Shown here piece after piece: positions 26,038 to 40,139 of a stretch of DNA of 64,000 nt. The notes beneath the pieces were generated by a model, which was not told where the DNA came from, did not search any database, and saw only the letters and a program-made list of their open reading frames with translations. Position 1 is the stretch's first letter. Every line of letters starts with the position of its first letter. The position numbers and the translations under genes are program-made. Origin of the DNA: a phage; sequence record OZ335959.1; one strand, given 5' to 3'.

Positions 26038-26067
26038 ATTATAACACAACACGATGGACTTGTAAAC
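26038..26067 (-). promoter_or_regulatory. T4 early-type promoter (GTTTAC, 18 nt, TATAAT) for the alt.-3 ORF; near-identical copy at 41542..41571
   Basis: -35 GTTTAC and -10 TATAAT on the minus strand; about 50 of 53 nt identical to the alc promoter and leader. Confidence 0.55.
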
Positions 26068-28124
26068 TACATCTTGAACTTTTTAGACATTCCATTGATG
26101 TTAACCAAAGAAGCCAAGATTTGAGAAACTTCGTTTTCCTCTTCTTTTGATTCTTCTACAAGGAATTGATTAAACCCAGCCATTGGACGAACTTCCCCAG
26201 TTTCCATTAGATGATCGCCATCATATACCGATTCTTCTAATTGTTCAGAAGGAGGAACGATTGTGCCTTCTATTAGATACTTGTTATAAGCAGTTTCTTT
26301 CATCATGTACGTGCTTACTTTATTAATCTTCAGCAAAATTCCACGCGGCAGAATAACTTCAGCTTCTGATGGAAATCCTGATAAATGACCTGGAACGATA
26401 ACTTTGATTCGCTCAGCCCCTTTAATTACCATACCTACGATAGTTTCATCATCTTCATTAGCATACGCAGAATGACTACCCATATGCATTAAATCTTCAG
26501 CATCAACAGAACCTTCTCCTTCACCAGAAAATACTGCACCTGAATCATCTAGAGCCATATAGTTTTTACCATGCTCACCGAAGATATTTGGTTTAAGCGA
26601 TGTTGATACGAAGTTCTTAAAATAGAACATTTTATTTTCAATATTATGACGTAAAGTTTTAAAAGTAACTTCTTGCCCACGATAAAGCGTAGTTCCTGGA
26701 GGAAGAACTGATCCTTTGGCGAATGCAGAATCCAGCGTCTCGATGTGTTTAATAGCTCGTTCCATGTATTCTTCACGGGTAGAATCTGGTTTACCCAAGA
26801 GGAACGAGTTCATTTCAACATATGAATCTGCACAATAATCTTCAATTACATCAGACTCAGCCTGAGTTAATCCTTTTGGAGTTACTTCGGTGCTTGCGTA
26901 TTCATATGCCTGAGCAGCAGATTCATTAATCAATTTATAAATGCCATTCATGACAAATCGAATAATAGCTGCCTTTTCGTCTGGTGTGGCTTTAGAACCT
27001 TTAACTAAATCATTGATAATTTTCTTAATAACATCAAAGCTATTAGAAATATTAATGTCAGCGAGATCGCTCAAAATTTTATCGGTTTTATAATCAAAAA
27101 ATTCTTTATTCTTTAAATATTCTTGAGAACCTTGATGTGTTATATCGCTCTGCAGTCTGATAGACGGATCACGTAAACGTGCATGGGCCAATGCAATATC
27201 ATTTCGGAAGCTTTCTAGTTCATAATCGTTAGATTTAAAACGAGAAGCACTTCTCATACCACCGATAGCTCCTTTGCCGAAGTTTGAACCAATCTGAATA
27301 ACGCCAGAGTTCATTGGTCCTTCTGCTTTATATACCGGAACTTTAGATTCAAACTCTTGATATTTCTTAGCAGCGAAGCTATCGCCCTGGAGTGAAGCAT
27401 CGACAGTAGAATATTGAGCTTGTGCTGCCAATCGACGACTAATTTTAGTTTTCTGAATAACAGCTTGATCCGTGCGCTTATCATTTTCTAAAGCAATAGA
27501 AGCGGCAACAGCAACAGCTTTAGGAACAGCATTACCTGTTTTAACATCTACATAAACATCACCAACCTTTGATTCAACTTTTGTGAATAACTCAGTTGAA
27601 ATAGGAGGTACACCTGGAATGTCTTCTAAATTGGCATTTTTACGGTAAACCATAATATATGCATACTTTTTATCATAATCCCAGATTTCCTTTAAAAGAA
27701 CATATCGACCTGCTCCTTTAGTACGTACTAAACGGTCAGCAATAACTTGCATTTGACGAGCTGCGCCATTTGTTTTACTTTTTAGTACGCGGAATAGGCA
27801 TGCATCAATTTTATACTGTTTCATTGTTTGAAGAGCAGTATCAAAAACGGCATTAATGACACCAATTGGATTTCCACCCAAGTTTTTAAGTTTAACTAAT
27901 GATAGTTTCTCATTAACACCTATCATTACGATATGCATCATTTTATCGCCTGGCTTAACGTTTTTATTTGTATCACCACCAGAGGTGTATGTACAAAATC
28001 TAAATCCAGGAAGCACGCTTTCTTCACCGGCTTGAATAGCAAAAATTTGAGGTATTTTATGCTTAGGATTTAAGTTAACAACCGGCGCCGAAGCGCCGTC
28101 AAATAATTCTGTAATAAGTTCCAT
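26067..28124 (-). CDS. Alt-like ADP-ribosyltransferase paralog, 685 aa
   Basis: N-terminus MELITELFDG shared with alt; C-terminal R/STS/E triad (YRGQ, FVSTSL, EAEVILPRG). Confidence 0.8.
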   Translation of the reverse strand: MELITELFDGASAPVVNLNPKHKIPQIFAIQAGEESVLPGFRFCTYTSGGDTNKNVKPGDKMMHIVMIGVNEKLSLVKLKNLGGNPIGVINAVFDTALQTMKQYKIDACLFRVLKSKTNGAARQMQVIADRLVRTKGAGRYVLLKEIWDYDKKYAYIMVYRKNANLEDIPGVPPISTELFTKVESKVGDVYVDVKTGNAVPKAVAVAASIALENDKRTDQAVIQKTKISRRLAAQAQYSTVDASLQGDSFAAKKYQEFESKVPVYKAEGPMNSGVIQIGSNFGKGAIGGMRSASRFKSNDYELESFRNDIALAHARLRDPSIRLQSDITHQGSQEYLKNKEFFDYKTDKILSDLADINISNSFDVIKKIINDLVKGSKATPDEKAAIIRFVMNGIYKLINESAAQAYEYASTEVTPKGLTQAESDVIEDYCADSYVEMNSFLLGKPDSTREEYMERAIKHIETLDSAFAKGSVLPPGTTLYRGQEVTFKTLRHNIENKMFYFKNFVSTSLKPNIFGEHGKNYMALDDSGAVFSGEGEGSVDAEDLMHMGSHSAYANEDDETIVGMVIKGAERIKVIVPGHLSGFPSEAEVILPRGILLKINKVSTYMMKETAYNKYLIEGTIVPPSEQLEESVYDGDHLMETGEVRPMAGFNQFLVEESKEEENEVSQILASLVNINGMSKKFKM

Positions 28125-28127
28125 GAT

Positions 28128-30221
28128 TTATCCTTGAACGAACTTGTAAGGCATGTTTGTAATATCTATGCAAGACGCAATAATTCCAAGAGATGATTCG
28201 ACTTTCTGTTTAACATTTGATGAAACAAATGATGCAAAATCAACTCTGTCTTCTATTTCAATATCACCTGTCATTGCAACTACTTCACCAGTTTCCATTA
28301 GACGGTCACCGTCATAAATTACTGATTCGGTGAGTTCTTCCGTAGTCATAACTTCAGCTTGAATGAGTTTTGTATTATTAGATGTTGTTCCGTCATTATT
28401 AGAAGCATCAGTTATTTTATTAACTTTGACCATCAATCCGCGTGGTAGAATAACTTCAGCTTCTGTTGCTATTCCGAGACTTCCTGGATATACAACATTA
28501 ACTTTATGAGCTCCATCAATTGCCCATCCTATTTGAACTTTAACGTATTCAGGATTTTCTTTATACGCTCTTATTTCATTTGGATTAATAGTTATTCCTT
28601 CTTCATTTTTATCAACTGTCAATTCATTACGAGCTTCTGGTTCTAAAAGACCAATACCAGCATGTGTAATTCCAAAACGTCCAAAAATGATAGGAGTTAA
28701 AGAAGTAGATACAAAATTTCTGAAATAGAACACTTTATTTTTAACTAGTGCTTCGTATATAGGAGCAGTCATACTTTGAGCACGATAAACTGTAATGCCT
28801 TCTGGTATACGGTCACCATTTTCAAAAGCTGAATCTAAGTTATTTATAGCAGATTCAATAGCCTTTTCATTCATTACATCATAGTTCTGAGGATTATAAC
28901 GTCCCAAAAGAAGATTATTGATGTCAGTATATCCTGAACCACAATACTCTCTAATGCCGCGCTTTTGTGATGGAGTATATTTAGAACCATCACGGGCAAT
29001 AGTAATATCAATCATTGGACCTGCACCAATTCCAGAAAAACTATAAATCATTCTTTTGAGGAATTTAGTTTTTGTTGCGTTCCAGGAATTTTTAGTTATT
29101 TCTTCCCAGACTTCATCTGGCTGTCCTTTACGTGTTTTATTATGTTTATCAAGCCAATTATCTTTATATTCTTCAAAGAGTTGATTAACGGCTGCTGCGT
29201 ATTTTTCTAAACATTTTATTGAAGTAGTTGGTTCATTTTTAATCGCATTAAGAATTACATCTTTAATTTTTTCAGAAACTTCATCAACTTCACTTTTTGA
29301 AAAGAATTTATAGTCATAGTGAAGTTCATCTGCAGTTCCTTCAGCAATAATTTTTGCTGCCTTAGTTTTAGAAGCTAATGAATTAATTCCAAGTTTCATT
29401 TCTTCTGCTTCGGGAATTAAAGGAGCGGTAGCAGGTTTATTGAAATTAGCTGCGGTAGATTCATACTTCTGGAATAATTCACTTTCAAATCTAGAAGATT
29501 CTAATGATTGACTTTGTGCAATTGCTCTACGGGAAATTTTAACTTTAACGATTACAGCTTGGTCAGAACGTTTATCGTTTTCTTGCGCAATAGATGCTGC
29601 AATGGCCTCATTTTTAGTTACTTGAGCTCCGGTATCTTTATTGATATAAACATCGCCGACCTTCGATTCAACTTTAGTAAAGAGCTCTGTACTAATTTCC
29701 GGAACTCCTGGAATGTCTTCTAATGATACATTTTTGCGATGTATAAGAATATATGCGTACTTTTTATCGTAATCCCAGAGTTCCTTAAGAAGGACGTATC
29801 TGCCACCTGAACGACTGCGGATAAGTCTATCAGCAATAAGTTGAATTTGACGAGCTTGACCAGCAGTTTTAGACTTAAGAATACGGAGCATACAGGCATC
29901 AATTTTATACTGACGCATCGTTTGCATTGCAACAGTAAAAACTGAATTGATGTAATTAATTGGGCTTGGACCGAGACCTTTTAATTTAGCAATTGAACCT
30001 TTAGCAGTTAATGTAAAAGGAACAATATGCATCATTTTATCGCCCATCTTTAAATCGCGATTAGTATCACCTCCAGATGTATAGGTACACAAACGAAAGC
30101 CTGGTTGTTCAATTGCGTCATCAACATGAACTGAAAAAATTTGCGGTATTTTCTTCTTTGGATTTAAGTTTGTAATCGGAAGAGTAGTATCTTCGTCAAA
30201 TAATTCTGTAATGAGTTCCAT
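28128..30221 (-). CDS. alt: Alt ADP-ribosyltransferase (capsid-packaged), about 697 aa
   Basis: Closely matches recalled T4 Alt ends; R/STS/E motifs; second ATG chosen for RBS spacing. Confidence 0.85.
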   Translation of the reverse strand: MELITELFDEDTTLPITNLNPKKKIPQIFSVHVDDAIEQPGFRLCTYTSGGDTNRDLKMGDKMMHIVPFTLTAKGSIAKLKGLGPSPINYINSVFTVAMQTMRQYKIDACMLRILKSKTAGQARQIQLIADRLIRSRSGGRYVLLKELWDYDKKYAYILIHRKNVSLEDIPGVPEISTELFTKVESKVGDVYINKDTGAQVTKNEAIAASIAQENDKRSDQAVIVKVKISRRAIAQSQSLESSRFESELFQKYESTAANFNKPATAPLIPEAEEMKLGINSLASKTKAAKIIAEGTADELHYDYKFFSKSEVDEVSEKIKDVILNAIKNEPTTSIKCLEKYAAAVNQLFEEYKDNWLDKHNKTRKGQPDEVWEEITKNSWNATKTKFLKRMIYSFSGIGAGPMIDITIARDGSKYTPSQKRGIREYCGSGYTDINNLLLGRYNPQNYDVMNEKAIESAINNLDSAFENGDRIPEGITVYRAQSMTAPIYEALVKNKVFYFRNFVSTSLTPIIFGRFGITHAGIGLLEPEARNELTVDKNEEGITINPNEIRAYKENPEYVKVQIGWAIDGAHKVNVVYPGSLGIATEAEVILPRGLMVKVNKITDASNNDGTTSNNTKLIQAEVMTTEELTESVIYDGDRLMETGEVVAMTGDIEIEDRVDFASFVSSNVKQKVESSLGIIASCIDITNMPYKFVQG

Positions 30222-30273
30222 CATATCCTCTCTAGTGTTTATTCTATTTATAAAATTAAAGGCCCGAAGGCCT

Positions 30274-30462
30274 TTAATAATCTATTGGTAAGAGAGTACG
30301 ATATATTTCAAACTTTGGACCTTTTTCATAGGTATCAAATGTTTCTGTGAATTTATTATAAGCATATGCATCTATAAATTCAATCATAATTTGTGATACA
30401 GAAGTAGAAACATCTCCACCTTCTTTTTGAGCCACGACAATTGTTTCTAAGTAAGCTTTCAT
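30274..30462 (-). CDS. Hypothetical protein, 62 aa
   Basis: ATGA overlap with ligase stop. Confidence 0.5.
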   Translation of the reverse strand: MKAYLETIVVAQKEGGDVSTSVSQIMIEFIDAYAYNKFTETFDTYEKGPKFEIYRTLLPIDY

Positions 30463-31919
30463 AGACCAGTTACCTCATGAAAATCACCAAATACATCCTC
30501 AAATGTATTAGCTTTAGTTTTATCTTCACGTAAACGAATCGCAATCGGAAGAAATAATTTAACGTAATCGGTGCGGCCGTCAGATTTTAACCAACCATTG
30601 CATTCACATTCTAGAATTTTTCCAATATAATAATTTTGGTTTTCCATAATGCGAGTACGGTCAAGTTCATGCGATTTTACACCGGCTTTATCTTTTAAGC
30701 CTGAACCAGCATTTACTTTAATTTTTCCACACTCTGATTCAAGAATAAATCCACCTGCTTTAGTAGGGTCTTTACGGTGAGGATAAATTCCTACAATTTT
30801 TAAATCAACATCAATTACTTCTTTAAATTTATAGAGATTTTTTGAACGAGCATTTTCCCATAATCCATCGATATTTTTGAGAATAATACCTTCAAGACCT
30901 TGGTCAATATACTTTTTATAAATTACCTTAGCTTCATCTAGGTTATTTACTACCTGGTTTTCAATTAAAATTACTTTATCATATCCTGATGTCATTTGTT
31001 CTAGTTTAGAAAAACGTGCATCATACTTCAAACGAAACGTCGGAAGACCGTATATTTCTACCAACGGGACATAATCCCAGACCTGAAACTTCATGCATTT
31101 GGCTTCTTTTTCTGAAATAGTTCCCTTTAAAGATTTATTGGCGATTCCATTAGAAGCAGTACGTGATTCAGCTACTTCGGCAAACTCTTTAACTTTACTA
31201 TTTTCAGGAACATCAAAAAGAAAATCTAGGCCTTCTGGCTCCTTTTCAACTTGCTCATGGTATACCAATTCGCCATCGATTAAAACACCTTCTGGATGAA
31301 TCTGGCGGGCTTCAGCGGTCATTTTGATTAACTCTTCCTTAAGAAGATCTAATCCTAGATATTCATTACCAGCTCGTGATAAAAGACGAACATCATCTAA
31401 TTCATCGCCTCGGACTTCAGCAAAACACCGAGCTCCATCTGCTTTTAACTGTGCAAAGGCTGGAAATTTGATATTCTTACTAATGCCTTTTTCATCATAA
31501 GAACTTGCCAGCATTTGAGGTTGTTCAGGAATTAAACCTGGCCAAACTTTATTTGCAATAGATACCGAAGCACCGCATTCGAGGTCTCGCATCATCACTC
31601 GACGCAAAACTTCAACATCATCCTTTTTACCATCGGTGATATATCCAGTTAATTCCTCAATTGCCGCATTTCCAGTCAATTTCCGAGTAGCTAACGTGAA
31701 TTCAATGAAGTCAAGCATATCGGTAATAGTCAGCATTCCAAAACTCTGGGTAGCAATACCAGGTTTAGGCCATTTCTTGATATAATACTGTAACCCACGA
31801 GAATAAGTCAGACGATATACTCGTTTAAGCAATTCATTATCTTTATTCTTTTCAAGAATTGCTTGCTTCTGCTTAGTTGATCCAATAGATGCTATTTCAT
31901 TCAGAATTTTAAGAATCAT
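30459..31919 (-). CDS. 30: ATP-dependent DNA ligase, 486 aa
   Basis: Sequence matches recalled T4 DNA ligase. Confidence 0.95.
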   Translation of the reverse strand: MILKILNEIASIGSTKQKQAILEKNKDNELLKRVYRLTYSRGLQYYIKKWPKPGIATQSFGMLTITDMLDFIEFTLATRKLTGNAAIEELTGYITDGKKDDVEVLRRVMMRDLECGASVSIANKVWPGLIPEQPQMLASSYDEKGISKNIKFPAFAQLKADGARCFAEVRGDELDDVRLLSRAGNEYLGLDLLKEELIKMTAEARQIHPEGVLIDGELVYHEQVEKEPEGLDFLFDVPENSKVKEFAEVAESRTASNGIANKSLKGTISEKEAKCMKFQVWDYVPLVEIYGLPTFRLKYDARFSKLEQMTSGYDKVILIENQVVNNLDEAKVIYKKYIDQGLEGIILKNIDGLWENARSKNLYKFKEVIDVDLKIVGIYPHRKDPTKAGGFILESECGKIKVNAGSGLKDKAGVKSHELDRTRIMENQNYYIGKILECECNGWLKSDGRTDYVKLFLPIAIRLREDKTKANTFEDVFGDFHEVTGL

Positions 31920-32185
31920 TGCTCATCCTTCAAGGTTTGGTTTACAGCTCTATTATAAATCAATTCATCATTAAGCTCAGGCAAAGACCTATGATATGTA
32001 GTTCTAACTTTATTTCCTTGCATCCAGTGCTTGACGTAAATGAAACCTTGCTCTACACATTTTTTAAAAATTCGTTCGTCTTTTTGAGCTCGGAATTCCG
32101 GATTGCATCTAAAAAATTGATTTACGTGACCATAATCACGTGTAGTATTACCTTCATTTTCATAAATAGTGTGAACGACAAACAT
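31916..32185 (-). CDS. Hypothetical protein (30.1 position), 89 aa
   Basis: ATG start; stop overlaps ligase start. Confidence 0.55.
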   Translation of the reverse strand: MFVVHTIYENEGNTTRDYGHVNQFFRCNPEFRAQKDERIFKKCVEQGFIYVKHWMQGNKVRTTYHRSLPELNDELIYNRAVNQTLKDEQ

Positions 32186-33024
32186 TAGAATGCTCCTTGG
32201 AAAATATTATCACCGCTAGTAGGTCTATTATACAAATACTCTATGCCACCAGGTTTAATGTAGTTCCATGTCTGAAACGGATGTGTCTGATATGGATGAT
32301 ATAGATGATTATAAGGATTAAATCCAGGCGTTCTCCAGGTAGTGTTCCAAGGAAAAGAATCGTTTTTAACCATCTTCTCAATTAAATCTTTTATAGCTTT
32401 TTCACTATCAAAACTTTCTTTATTTTCCTTCGGCGAAAAAAGCTTATTTTCTACATCATTCCATGTATAAACTCGCTGAGCAGTTTTTGGAATATTGTCA
32501 CGCTCTCCTCGAGCCATCCAATAAACCGGAACATTTAATATTTCACTCGCATGATCGCAATGGTGAGCGAGATCGTCAATATAACAAATTACGTTATATT
32601 TCTCTTTTGCCTTTTTAAACAACTCTTCTTTTGAAGAATCATGACCACACATCATTACTTCTGAGAAGGCACCAGGAAAAAGAGCATTCAAATTAAATTG
32701 ACGATTCAGCAGAGCGTCAATAGAATCACCCAATGCTGTAACAGCTACAAAATTATAATCTTCTTTTAATTTGTTAATTACACACAGGGCATCTTTATAC
32801 GGAGACAAGTAACGAATAAAATCTGAACGATTGTATTTTTCAATTAGCTTGACACCGAGTTCTTCATCACAATTAAAGAGTTTACCCGGAGAAATAAATT
32901 TCTCATCTTGGATCATTTTTAAAATATGTTCTAACGGAAGATTATATTTCTGAGCAAAATAAGGAAGACCTGATTGCCAGCTTAAACATACTCCATCAAT
33001 ATCAGTTAAAATAGTAGGCTTCAT
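32185..33024 (-). CDS. Putative HAD-superfamily hydrolase (30.2 position), 279 aa
   Basis: N-terminal LTDIDGV resembles HAD motif I; possible motif IV IDD. Confidence 0.55.
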   Translation of the reverse strand: MKPTILTDIDGVCLSWQSGLPYFAQKYNLPLEHILKMIQDEKFISPGKLFNCDEELGVKLIEKYNRSDFIRYLSPYKDALCVINKLKEDYNFVAVTALGDSIDALLNRQFNLNALFPGAFSEVMMCGHDSSKEELFKKAKEKYNVICYIDDLAHHCDHASEILNVPVYWMARGERDNIPKTAQRVYTWNDVENKLFSPKENKESFDSEKAIKDLIEKMVKNDSFPWNTTWRTPGFNPYNHLYHPYQTHPFQTWNYIKPGGIEYLYNRPTSGDNIFQGAF

Positions 33025-33479
33025 AGAGAGTCTCTTAATAGGTTTAACACATCAATAAATTCAGCTTCGGTTAGTATTGTATCATCTTTTGTTAGACCAC
33101 TAGCCATGCTGTGCTTCAAAACTTTTCCTTTCGAGGCTTGTAATGCATCACGAAAGCCCTTATTTTGGAACGCTGCTTCAAAATATGCATTTGTGTATAA
33201 TTCTTTCCACGCTGGAGAGTATCTTGAAAACGGAACTCCAAGCCAGAACAACGTGCCACGGTCCTGAGCTCTAGCATAAGCTCGTCCAGCTTGTTGGGCG
33301 GCAAGCCCGGATAACCCAAATATACGACGTTGCTGTTCAACATTTTTCACCTTACACCCTTGGAGGAATCCTTCGAGACCTCCAAATTGGATACTATCCA
33401 TAACAAAAGGCCATTGGGCGAAATTACTTAATGCGCATGATGGCCATCTAAAATTGCTTCTAATCTCTAACTCAGACAT
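33021..33479 (-). CDS. NADAR / YbiA-like (DUF1768) domain protein (30.3 position), 152 aa
   Basis: ALSNFAQWPF aligns with E. coli YbiA FSNFAAWPI core motif. Confidence 0.6.
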   Translation of the reverse strand: MSELEIRSNFRWPSCALSNFAQWPFVMDSIQFGGLEGFLQGCKVKNVEQQRRIFGLSGLAAQQAGRAYARAQDRGTLFWLGVPFSRYSPAWKELYTNAYFEAAFQNKGFRDALQASKGKVLKHSMASGLTKDDTILTEAEFIDVLNLLRDSL

Positions 33480-33687
33480 CTTTAATACTTATAATTTCAA
33501 CATCAGCCCAATGACCGTAACTTGGTAAACGGTCTTCAATAGATAATCCGCCATCATATTTAAGCATTTTAATTGTCATAATATATGGCTCTAAATGGTC
33601 TTCAGTGAGTGGAGAGACATCAGTCACGCGATAAGTAACTTCGACCATTTCCGTGCCAAGTAATTTCTGGATTAATTTCTTAAACAT
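33472..33687 (-). CDS. Hypothetical protein, 71 aa
   Basis: ATG start, operon packing. Confidence 0.5.
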   Translation of the reverse strand: MFKKLIQKLLGTEMVEVTYRVTDVSPLTEDHLEPYIMTIKMLKYDGGLSIEDRLPSYGHWADVEIISIKDV

Positions 33688-33691
33688 TTTA

Positions 33692-33979
33692 TTAAAATCT
33701 CATCTGAAAACCGTGTGATTTAACATTACCGCCGCCAATATCAGAAATGTTAATTTCACGCGCAATTGAAGGGTCAATGTCAATTTCACGATTGAGTTTA
33801 ATGATAGCTAAAGTATCGCGGCCATTTACAGTACGGAACTCTAAAGGACATACTACATTAACGTAGTTTTTAATCGATTCGCTGGTAGGTTGCAAATGAG
33901 CAGGAAGGTCTTTAGGCGCTTTAGAGAAAACTACTTCACAGAAATTTTTGCGGGTGTCAAAATAAGTAGTCATAAACAT
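33692..33979 (-). CDS. Hypothetical protein, 96 aa (start trimmed to ATG after hairpin and GAGGAA RBS)
   Basis: The ORF-track extension translates the upstream GC hairpin. Confidence 0.5.
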   Translation of the reverse strand: MFMTTYFDTRKNFCEVVFSKAPKDLPAHLQPTSESIKNYVNVVCPLEFRTVNGRDTLAIIKLNREIDIDPSIAREINISDIGGGNVKSHGFQMRF

Positions 33980-34019
33980 AGTATTTTCCTCAGTAAGGGG
34001 CCGAAGCCCCTGTTTTATT

Positions 34020-34385
34020 TTAAATATCAAATTCGTTAAGAACTACATCAAAGATTGCTTCAAGATGCTCAGGTTTAGCTCTGTTACTTAGAATATGACG
34101 AATCCAAGTTTTAACCAGAAGCTTGCGATTAACGCCATTCCAGCAAGGATGAGTCCCTAAATCGCGTTGACGAAAATCATCATCCAAAGCGATTTTGAAG
34201 TTGGAACCTTCCATTGTGATTGAAACCGTGATGCCATTTTCAAATCGCATATAAACGTAGTTAGGAGTCATATACTGTTCAATTTCGCATACTGATCCAT
34301 TTTGATGTTTCCAAAGGCAAATAGTATCAATAGAACCTGCAATACCATTAGAAACATATTTACGTTCAAAGTTGATGTAGTTCAT
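34020..34385 (-). CDS. Hypothetical protein, 121 aa
   Basis: ATG start; early promoter with inverted repeat upstream. Confidence 0.55.
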   Translation of the reverse strand: MNYINFERKYVSNGIAGSIDTICLWKHQNGSVCEIEQYMTPNYVYMRFENGITVSITMEGSNFKIALDDDFRQRDLGTHPCWNGVNRKLLVKTWIRHILSNRAKPEHLEAIFDVVLNEFDI

Positions 34386-34860: not shown

Positions 34861-34891
34861 GGAAAATAAAAAAGGACTCCCGAAGGAGTCC
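34861..34891 (-). terminator. Terminator after the small basic ORF
   Basis: GGACUCC-UUCG-GGAGUCC followed by UUUUUUAUUUU on the minus strand. Confidence 0.6.
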
Positions 34892-34896
34892 TCAAC

Positions 34897-35073
34897 TTAT
34901 GCTTTCTGCTTACCAAAACGAGAAGCATCATCTCGAAGAACCGCACGTGCTCGGCGCATGATCTTCTCAACAGTTTGATTGATACGAGAGTTCGACCCAC
35001 GCTTGTAGCCAGCGCGTTTAGAATCACCAACTTTCTTTTCAACTGCTTTCTTTGCTTTAGCTTGTTTTGCCAT
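34897..35073 (-). CDS. Small lysine/arginine-rich protein, 58 aa (internal ATG of the 72-aa track ORF)
   Basis: MAKQAKAKKAVEKK...; terminator hairpin directly downstream. Confidence 0.45.
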   Translation of the reverse strand: MAKQAKAKKAVEKKVGDSKRAGYKRGSNSRINQTVEKIMRRARAVLRDDASRFGKQKA

Positions 35074-35192
35074 TATAAATTCTCTTTTAAATGAAAATGC
35101 AGGACTTATTGGCATTGCCTGCGCAAGCCCTCAAGGGGAACATAGGTTTTGAATATTTACCGACAGGATAACCATAAACCTCGTCAACATAC

Positions 35193-38917: not shown

Positions 38918-38918
<1 letters not shown>
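38721..38918 (-). CDS. Hypothetical protein, about 65 aa (start moved to the ATG forming a TAATG overlap with pseT stop)
   Basis: The track start would overlap pseT by 30 nt. Confidence 0.4.

Positions 38919-40139
<1,221 letters not shown>

Follow-up and report, generated by a model that had tools for sequence, protein, structure and literature searches.

Genes 30.3 (adfN) and 30.2 (a HAD-superfamily phosphatase) of a T4-like phage: co-oriented neighbours that most likely act independently

Does a NADAR (YbiA-like) gene that lies directly beside a HAD-like hydrolase gene in a phage genome form part of a two-gene counter-defence or nucleotide-salvage module, as an earlier note on this DNA had proposed, or are both genes simply neighbours? 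The question arises in a stretch of 64,000 nucleotides from sequence record OZ335959.1 (hereafter, the window), which is of the Tequatrovirus type and shares 99% DNA identity with Shigella phage Sfk20.

Layout of the 30.3/30.2 locus

On sequence grounds, the two open reading frames belong to the T-even '30-rIII' cluster and are the T4-like genes 30.3 and 30.2. They are situated on the minus strand, as are the neighbouring genes of this section and every motif of both proteins located below, at 33021-33479 (gene 30.3, or adfN, for anti-DarT factor NADAR; 152 aa, full length) and at 32185-33024 (gene 30.2, for a HAD-superfamily phosphatase with a C-terminal tail; 279 aa), just where the earlier note had placed them. 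The short motifs that had drawn attention to them are also found in their products, SNFAQWPF at residues 18-25 of gp30.3 and DIDGV at residues 8-12 of gp30.2. Both frames are genuine rather than chance ORFs, the first matching the Pfam family PF08010 (Phage_30_3) with an E value of 2.1e-68 and the second phrog_420 with an E value of 7e-93.

The gene order of the window matches that of T4 and ime09, and near-identical copies of the 30.3/30.2 region are present in 694 phage records. The stop codon of 30.3 and the start codon of 30.2 overlap in an ATGA (33021-33024), as read from the sequence, and 30.2 shares one base (TAATG) with gene 30.1 (31916-32185; DUF3045, PF11243, E 1.6e-63). This gene lies between 30.2 and gene 30 (30459-31919), an ORF annotated in ime09 and T4 as the ATP-dependent DNA ligase gene. 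The proximity of alt genes holds as well: two tandem Alt-like ADP-ribosyltransferase genes, identified as ORFs and from the annotation of their ime09 homologues, are located at 26067-28124 and 28128-30224, with alt.1, the ligase gene and 30.1 standing between them and the 30.3/30.2 pair. A promoter scan returned 22 sites, no real excess over the 19.4 expected from shuffling, and gave no sign of a promoter dedicated to 30.3/30.2, and no terminator-like sites were found on the coding strand from 34872 to 30200.

Gene 30.3 and its place among the NADARs

Over its whole length, gp30.3 is identical to T4 gp30.3 at 148 of 152 residues (97%), and none of the four differences (S29G, A67S, F104I and M125I, relative to T4) affects a catalytic or invariant position. 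Like T4 AdfN, it has the same gene position and length, the residues E36, K43 and H123, and an intact C-terminal helix (residues 139-152, 33024-33065; residues 138-151 in the structural model), its C-terminus being identical to that of the T4 protein.

Searches of the PDB with single sequences gave noise alone. Since direct searches against PF08719 (NADAR), the HAD models of Pfam, NCBIfam and PADLOC returned no matches either (with PADLOC, for neither protein of the window), alignments of the families, scans of their individual members and predicted structures were used instead. PF08719 does not match gp30.3 at E<=1 because Pfam files this protein under a sister family, PF08010, and on account of this filing the absence of a NADAR profile match, which the earlier note would have counted against its own proposal, would have misled. 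The profile check itself is negative for PF08719 and positive for PF08010 (E 2e-68). PF08719 does match 22 of 54 members of the gp30.3 family (best E 1.5e-7), so that the sequence link of gp30.3 to the NADARs is transitive, and the family profile matches E. coli YbiA (2b3w, E 0.0045) over the LSNF...E...K region.

The AF2 model of gp30.3 (pLDDT 93.6, pTM 0.89) displays the NADAR fold, with its core helices and two beta-hairpins (residues 25-32 and residues 76-85). The only significant PDB matches returned by Foldseek for this model were YbiA 2b3w (the best, with E 3e-5 and TM 0.68) and the NADARs of G. lovleyi (8bat) and P. nicotianae (8bau), both with a probability of 0.99. The SNFAQWPF stretch (33405-33428, from the translation) represents the LSNF core motif of the fold and aligns to 'FSNFAAWPIKVDG' of YbiA; A16-L17-S18-N19-F20 and F25 are invariant among the 54 relatives. 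The catalytic residues, supported by mutagenesis of the T4 protein, are Glu36 (33372-33374), invariant in the same relatives, and Lys43 (33351-33353), kept in at least 90% of them, and both fit the catalytic E-x6-K motif that follows the LSNF strand. His123 (33111-33113), also invariant, comes right after the model strand 120-122, at the position that defines the subfamilies. It has been established that this last-strand position is occupied by Glu in the YbiA family, by Asp in the BC4488/DarT1-linked NADARs and by His in the phage gp30.3 NADARs (PMC11125620; PMC11543638), and His123 places gp30.3 in the phage gp30.3/AdfN subfamily. The proposal that the 152-aa ORF encodes a NADAR is thus sustained by the PF08010 match, by the resemblance of the predicted fold to solved NADARs and by the conservation of E36, K43 and H123.

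The T4 orthologue was described in 2024 as the anti-DarT factor NADAR (10.1101/2024.07.11.602962; PMC11825919; PMC11125620). It has been demonstrated that T-even phages require adfN to escape from DarTG1 and that this gene suffices for the escape, that its deletion renders T4 and T2 about 10^4-fold sensitive to this system, and that purified T4 AdfN, alone, strips ADP-ribose from DNA, acting on ADP-ribosylated guanine but not on ADP-ribosylated thymidine (10.1101/2024.07.11.602962; PMC11825919). In RB69, which is sensitive to DarTG1, a frameshift removes the last 15 residues of AdfN including the C-terminal helix; ectopic AdfN rescues this phage, and both E36A and K43A abolish the rescue (10.1101/2024.07.11.602962). 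The knockout and the in vitro de-ADP-ribosylation assay that the earlier note had envisaged are therefore already published for T4 adfN, both with a positive outcome. Its counter-defence reading of gp30.3 is right and already known, since the T4 orthologue de-ADP-ribosylates guanine in DNA and counters DarT1; what the window adds is one more intact allele of a phage NADAR gene whose T4 product was shown in 2024 to undo the DarT1-type ADP-ribosylation of guanine.

According to this model, the DarT1 toxin of a host DarTG1 system would put ADP-ribose onto guanine of the phage DNA. AdfN, as a stand-alone NADAR-fold ADP-ribosylglycohydrolase, would cut the N-glycosidic bond between ribose and guanine by means of Glu36, Lys43 and His123, and this cleavage would free the ADP-ribose and make the template replicable again. 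These steps have been demonstrated experimentally for T4 AdfN. For the window phage, we infer the activity and the protection against DarTG1 from the 97% identity to that protein, from the C-terminal helix, which is intact, and from the conservation of the catalytic residues.

A different substrate would be expected if gp30.3 were a YbiA-type N-glycosidase acting on riboflavin intermediates or other soluble nucleotides, which together with the HAD phosphatase would constitute a nucleotide-salvage pair. YbiA, whose LSNF...E...K motifs align with those of gp30.3, is its top single structural match, and gp30.2 resembles nucleotidases. YbiA has been tied to a riboflavin-intermediate N-glycosidase activity, its gene being part of a LexA-controlled operon (PMC11125620), and soluble ADP-ribose derivatives were earlier proposed as substrates of phage NADARs (PMC9503650). 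On the other hand, the position that defines the subfamilies is Glu in YbiA but His123 in gp30.3, which disfavours the riboflavin reading, and the T4 orthologue has been shown to act on DNA and to have a strong phenotype with DarTG1. A salvage pair of this kind is highly improbable, and the AdfN assignment is the one retained here.

Gene 30.2 and its candidate substrate

The gp30.2 protein is identical to T4 gp30.2 at 271 of 279 residues (97%). It has no direct match in Pfam or NCBIfam, HAD models included, and curated HAD models match a minority of its 41 relatives (PF00702 in 11, PF13419 in 5 and TIGR01509 in 3), all below or near threshold. By fold and motifs, gp30.2 is nevertheless a HAD-fold phosphatase; the earlier note had read it as a HAD-like hydrolase from its first residues. 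Its HAD core with an alpha-helical C1 cap comprises residues 1-195 (32440-33024), the cap covering roughly residues 14-72. Motif I, D8-I-D10-G-V (32989-33003), aligns to NMDGV (D12N) of the deoxyribonucleotidase 2jao, and both D8 and D10 are invariant in the 41 relatives. Motif II corresponds to Thr96 (32737-32739), conserved in at least 90% of these relatives and placed at the end of the strand 91-96, and motif III to Lys132 (32629-32631), which is invariant. Motif IV is formed by Asp150-Asp151, the Mg2+ ligands (32572-32577), likewise invariant and at the end of the strand 145-150. All four motifs occur in the correct order on a HAD core fold, and a Foldseek search with the model gave 92 matches at E<=1e-3, the best 50 of these 92 being all HAD-fold structures. 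A short DxDxV motif by itself is weak evidence for a HAD protein.

The C-terminal tail (residues 196-279, 32188-32439) has a high content of Pro, Asn and aromatic residues, includes the motif GGIEYLYNRPT and is probably disordered, with pLDDT values below 50 at residues 198-204, 222-235 and 240-279 and one short helix at 207-220. It is missing or different in many relatives, a GTGIEYLxxQPT motif being found in 12 of 100 cluster representatives. The tail is fast-evolving.

In mechanistic terms, gp30.2 would be a Mg2+-dependent phosphatase in which Asp8 would serve as the nucleophile and Asp10 as the acid/base, with Thr96, Lys132 and Asp150/Asp151 completing the active site beneath the C1 cap. 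C1-capped HAD active sites normally take small phosphomonoesters. Judged by the nearest relatives of the protein, the most likely substrate is a (deoxy)nucleoside monophosphate. PF06941 (NT5C) matches 6 of the 41 relatives (best E 1.2e-4), with the window protein below threshold, and the best PDB profile match of the family is the 5'(3')-deoxyribonucleotidase 2jao, a weak one (E 0.03) restricted to residues 5-102. Among the Foldseek matches listed, the lowest rmsd values correspond to the human deoxyribonucleotidases cdN/mdN and to 3bwv. In addition, the invariant Trp16 (32977-32979) aligns with the Phe of 'DGVLADF' in 2jao, a base-stacking residue; this alignment provides a lead rather than a test. 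A literature search on gp30.2 found no biochemical or otherwise relevant report, and we infer its activity, substrate and role in infection from sequence and model.

Linkage of 30.3 and 30.2 and comparison with known systems

In IMG/VR, gp30.2-type HADs were found in 79 distinct viral loci, from 123 confirmed matches, and linkage was counted in 6-kb windows around these and around 80 viral loci of gp30.3-family NADARs. A gp30.2-type HAD lies within 6 kb of the NADAR in 21 of the 80 NADAR loci and is not found there in 59. Seen from the HAD side, a NADAR gene is present within 6 kb in 38 of the 79 loci, directly adjoining in 22, and none is found within this distance in 41, while the ligase gene is located within 6 kb in 74 of the 79 and within 600 bp in 67. 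The steadiest companion of 30.2 is thus the ligase gene; the HAD follows the ligase and not the NADAR. In the sample, genes 30.3 and 30.2 adjoin each other in every T-even and RB69-like genome and in some phages of Acinetobacter, but in only a part of the T4-like phages as a whole, and the NADAR genes of jumbo phages have unrelated neighbours. The 254-aa and 235-aa neighbours of two distant gp30.3 homologues (loci L004 and L008, respectively) were considered as cryptic HADs and discarded, as they have neither a DxD start nor any resemblance, and the ORFs upstream of a distant 30.2 homologue (L007) were checked and are not NADARs.

The constant company of a gp30-type ligase gene, which persists in loci of inverted gene order (L165-167, L007), would suit a DNA-end 3'-phosphatase of the PNKP/PseT type that makes nicks ready for the gp30 DNA ligase encoded nearby, and gp30.2 also shows a weak match to phrog_415 'polynucleotide kinase' (E 0.002). 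However, linkage alone is weak evidence because T4-like genomes are broadly syntenic, and a helical C1 cap is inserted between motifs I and II in the gp30.2 model, whereas HAD phosphatases working on the ends of macromolecules, such as PNKP and PseT, are not known to carry a cap. Moreover, the window phage already encodes PseT (38918-39823). A role at DNA ends is consequently quite unlikely, and a (deoxy)nucleoside monophosphate is preferred as the substrate. Also against such a role, hhalign of the gp30.2 family with the phage's own PseT aligned 24 columns, around motif I only, with a probability of 10%, and the idea that gp30.2 and the phosphatase domain of PseT are paralogues was rejected on this result.

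The ATGA overlap, together with the adjacency in T-even and RB69-like genomes, suggests coupled expression of 30.3 and 30.2 but does not in itself argue for a common pathway. It could also be read, along with the common direction of transcription and the 22 directly adjoining pairs, which include divergent Acinetobacter T4-like phages, as the mark of a two-enzyme counter-defence module. In such a module, gp30.2 would either supply the phage factor on which AdfN depends in vivo or remove phosphate from a product or by-product of the de-ADP-ribosylation. It has been shown that T4 AdfN does not relieve DarT1 toxicity in E. coli without infection and rescues phages outside Tevenvirinae only partly, being fully effective only during T-even infection, and according to its authors 'another factor' of phage origin may be involved (10.1101/2024.07.11.602962; PMC11825919). 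The rescue of RB69 by AdfN is compatible with gp30.2 being such an extra factor because RB69 is expected to carry 30.2, as the RB69-like genomes in the sample do. On the other hand, the two genes occur apart in the 59 NADAR loci and the 41 HAD loci mentioned above, purified AdfN de-ADP-ribosylates DNA unaided (10.1101/2024.07.11.602962; PMC11825919), and its authors favour a preference for hydroxymethylcytosine-containing DNA as the explanation (10.1101/2024.07.11.602962). With respect to a dephosphorylation step, the chemistry of NADAR hydrolysis (PMC11543638) would yield free ADP-ribose and intact guanine, and therefore no phosphomonoester to remove. The module reading is quite unlikely.

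Taken together, the proposal of a two-gene functional module is not supported, given a HAD near the NADAR in 21 of 80 loci, a HAD that tracks the ligase and an AdfN that works alone in vitro. Gene 30.3 as adfN and gene 30.2 as a HAD phosphatase gene are very probably co-oriented neighbours acting independently, and gp30.2 is probably not an obligate partner of AdfN. There is a slim chance that AdfN owes its effectiveness in vivo to gp30.2 as the missing T-even-specific factor, or else that gp30.2 is a nucleotidase or phosphatase tied to DNA ligase. The former role would account for both the inability of AdfN to act as an antitoxin without infection and the partial rescue outside Tevenvirinae, and with either role a conserved T4 gene would gain a part in keeping attacked phage DNA replicable. 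Nothing at the 30.3/30.2 locus points to a new kind of mechanism. Roughly 100 T4 genes are still without a function (10.1101/2024.07.11.602962), and a substrate assignment for gp30.2 would fill one of these gaps.

Among known systems, gp30.2 is probably closest to the 5'(3')-deoxyribonucleotidases of PF06941 (human cdN/mdN, S. epidermidis 3bwv and phage PBS1 Dtm, a dTMP phosphatase), which lack its 84-residue tail of predicted disorder. T4 DNA keeps thymine, and dCMP is required as the precursor of hydroxymethyl-dCMP, so the logic of Dtm is not directly transferable to gp30.2. Regarding gp30.3, counterparts besides T4 AdfN are the DarG1/DarT1-associated NADAR antitoxins of the BC4488 family, such as G. 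lovleyi 8bat and the E. coli C7 NADAR. Unlike these, the phage protein lacks an N-terminal extension, has His in the last-strand position where they have Asp, has no DarT gene adjoining it and, as AdfN, cannot serve as an antitoxin in uninfected cells. Common to both are the fold and the Glu/Lys pair, with E88/K95 of the C7 NADAR as the counterpart of E36/K43, as well as the reaction, which takes ADP-ribose off the N2 of guanine in DNA (PMC11543638).

Organization of the 30.3-30.2 locus

The window derives from the genome of a Tequatrovirus, and a nucleotide search with the 1.8-kb region surrounding genes 30.3 and 30.2 matched 694 phage records, chiefly T4-like phages of Escherichia and Shigella, with 99.0% identity to Shigella phage Sfk20. 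The earlier note had described a NADAR (YbiA-like) gene beside a HAD-like hydrolase gene; the two ORFs are exactly genes 30.3 (33021-33479, minus strand, 152 aa) and 30.2 (32185-33024, minus strand, 279 aa), and translation confirmed both motifs, SNFAQWPF at residues 18-25 of gp30.3 and DIDGV at residues 8-12 of gp30.2. The minus-strand gene order is that of T4: rIII and gene 31 lie beyond 30.4 (33472-33687), which is followed by 30.3, 30.2, 30.1 (31916-32185), the DNA ligase gene 30 (30459-31919), alt.1, and two tandem Alt-like ADP-ribosyltransferase genes (26067-28124 and 28128-30224; 685 and 698 aa). A 30.6-like ORF (33692-34030) directly adjoins 30.4. T4 carries 30.5 between 30.4 and 30.6, while the window phage, like phage ime09, is devoid of it (33472-34030); the tandem Alt-like pair is also found in ime09, there as alt.-2 and alt. 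No evidence was found for a functional link between the Alt-like genes and gp30.3 (AdfN), which acts on DNA that a host enzyme has modified.

Genes 30.3 and 30.2 overlap by ATGA, and 30.2 and 30.1 by one base. No terminator-like site was found on the coding strand from 34872 to 30200, and the sites returned by a promoter scan were not above chance. A strong terminator-like hairpin of 9 pairs (GAGGACTCC-TTCG-GGAGTCCTT, then a T-run) is present at 34872-34893 on the minus strand, and may be a boundary of transcription on the upstream side of the 30.8-30 gene block. It lies just downstream of a 72-aa ORF (34897-35115), and promoter-like sites at 34842-34814 and 34485-34456 come after it.

The predicted HAD phosphatase encoded by gene 30.2

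The gp30.2 protein of the window matches neither Pfam nor NCBIfam and belongs to phrog_420, a functionally unannotated family (E = 7e-93); a literature search found no paper discussing it. An alignment of 41 relatives displays the full HAD signature, with invariant Asp8 and Asp10 (motif I), Lys132 (motif III) and Asp150-Asp151 (motif IV), and Thr96 (motif II) conserved in at least 90%. In the HAD superfamily, the second Asp of motif I is the mark of a phosphoryl-transfer enzyme, not of a dehalogenase. Eleven of the 41 relatives match PF00702 and six match PF06941 (NT5C deoxyribonucleotidase). The AlphaFold model is confident over residues 1-195, where a Rossmann-like core carries a helical cap placed after motif I, and a Foldseek search of the PDB returned 92 matches at E<=1e-3, the best 50 of which are all HAD-fold. 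Structure searches agree on the superfamily: by its predicted fold gp30.2 is a HAD phosphatase, and as to the fold the HAD proposal of the earlier note holds.

Among the listed Foldseek matches, the lowest rmsd and best target coverage correspond to 5'(3')-deoxyribonucleotidases (2jao, 2i7d, 1q92 and 3bwv). The family profile also has 2jao as its top PDB match (E = 0.03), the invariant Trp16 aligning to the Phe of the 2jao DGVLADF motif. A characterised phage member of the deoxyribonucleotidase family is the PBS1 dTMP phosphatase Dtm (PMC12697855). We infer that gp30.2 is probably a Mg2+-dependent small-molecule phosphatase acting on nucleoside monophosphates. A DNA 3'-phosphatase role like that of the phage's own PseT (38918-39823) was also considered; only motif I aligns between the two proteins, at an alignment probability of 10%, and this together with the cap in the model makes such a role unlikely.

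The tail of gp30.2 (residues 196-279; 32188-32439, minus strand) is mostly predicted to be disordered, with residues 198-279 of the model mostly at pLDDT <50 except for a short helix at 207-220. Pro, Asn and aromatic residues are abundant in it. Many relatives do not have this tail and all the rest vary greatly in it, with short clade-specific motifs that recur (GTGIEYLxxQPT, GGIEYLYNRPT in the window; LRAYY; LLNKVxANDS; SLRA[ST]F). It may serve as a protein-docking tail.

Linkage of the HAD gene to the ligase

The proposal that both genes form a counter-defence or nucleotide-salvage module was assessed in 80 viral loci with a gp30.3-family NADAR and 79 with a gp30.2-family HAD, each with 6-kb flanks, searched with both family profiles and the window's ligase. 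A HAD gene lies within 6 kb in only 21 of the 80 NADAR loci (T-even, RB69-like and some other T4-like genomes); among the 59 without it are many T4-like genomes of 160-180 kb and jumbo-phage contigs of 250-424 kb. A gp30-type ligase is found within 6 kb in 74/79 HAD loci and within 600 bp in 67/79, whereas a NADAR gene is within 6 kb in only 38/79 and directly adjacent in 22/79. The HAD gene keeps near the ligase even in distant relatives with inverted order (loci L007 and L165-167, ligase upstream). Therefore, the HAD gene tracks the ligase, not the NADAR gene, and a two-gene module is unsupported; given the strong synteny of T4-like genomes, the ligase linkage, too, is no more than suggestive. 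What gp30.2 adds is a widespread, ligase-linked HAD phosphatase with a variable, predicted-disordered tail. In four HAD loci devoid of a nearby ligase, the gene lies among PhoH, PD-(D/E)XK nuclease, gp59-like and UvsX genes.

In jumbo-phage contigs, the neighbours of the NADAR gene are unrelated proteins, Nudix/Thg1 genes or RNA ligases. Family members at about 40% identity occur in loci L004-L006 (contigs of 308, 30 and 17 kb, the 308-kb one a jumbo-phage contig) and L008-L010. One type has Nudix and Thg1-like genes in its vicinity, and a 201-aa NADAR with an N-terminal extension is found near Rnl2-type and T4 Rnl1-type RNA ligases, a setting more suggestive of RNA repair or NAD metabolism than of DarT.

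Gene 30.3 as adfN

The gp30.3 protein matches Pfam PF08010 (Phage_30_3; E = 2.1e-68) and not PF08719 (NADAR) at E<=1, so that the absence of a NADAR profile match, by which the earlier note would have judged its assignment, misfires here as a false negative. NADAR membership follows from other evidence: 22 of 54 metagenome and phage relatives match PF08719 (best E = 1.5e-7), and the family profile reaches E. coli YbiA (2b3w; E = 0.0045) precisely across the LSNF...E...K stretch. The confident AlphaFold model (pLDDT 93.6, pTM 0.89) matches three solved structures only, all NADARs: YbiA 2b3w (E = 3e-5, TM 0.68), and Geobacter lovleyi 8bat and Phytophthora 8bau (search probability 0.99 each), further matches having probabilities <=0.03.

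Schuller et al. 2023 (PMC11543638) found that NADARs reverse DarT1-catalysed guanine ADP-ribosylation and that the residue at the last strand differs between groups: the YbiA family has Glu, the DarT1-linked NADARs have Asp and those of phages His. Among the 54 relatives, Glu36 and His123 are invariant and Lys43 nearly so; His123 disfavours the alternative reading of a YbiA-type enzyme acting on riboflavin intermediates. A 75-codon ORF in another frame of adfN (33116-33343, minus strand) corresponds to 30.3', annotated in T4 as "internal translation in a different reading frame". T-even relatives with AdfN identities as low as 86% keep this frame open over 53-75 codons; three further loci, at about 45%, comprise two without such an ORF and one whose 54-codon ORF is unrelated.

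The counter-defence reading was right, and AdfN activity against the bacterial defence DarTG1 was already known. Purified T4 gp30.3 hydrolyses guanosine-ADPr, not thymidine-ADPr, and was unable to rescue E. coli from DarT1 (PMC11125620). In the preprint that renamed gene 30.3 adfN (10.1101/2024.07.11.602962, PMC11825919), its deletion made T4 and T2 about 10^4-fold DarTG1-sensitive, and purified AdfN took ADP-ribose off DNA. Ectopic AdfN rescued RB69, whose own copy has lost 15 residues by frameshift truncation, and E36A and K43A each abolished rescue. T4 AdfN was fully effective only in T-even infection, an additional phage factor being left open by that work. As 30.2 is present in the sampled RB69-like genomes, these experiments leave room for gp30.2 as such a factor, a role that we consider very improbable. 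The literature on the T4 protein settles what gene 30.3 does: it is adfN and encodes a known NADAR enzyme of counter-defence. The same activity is predicted for the window copy, which is full length, identical to T4 AdfN at 148 of 152 residues, and keeps both the C-terminal helix and every catalytic residue.
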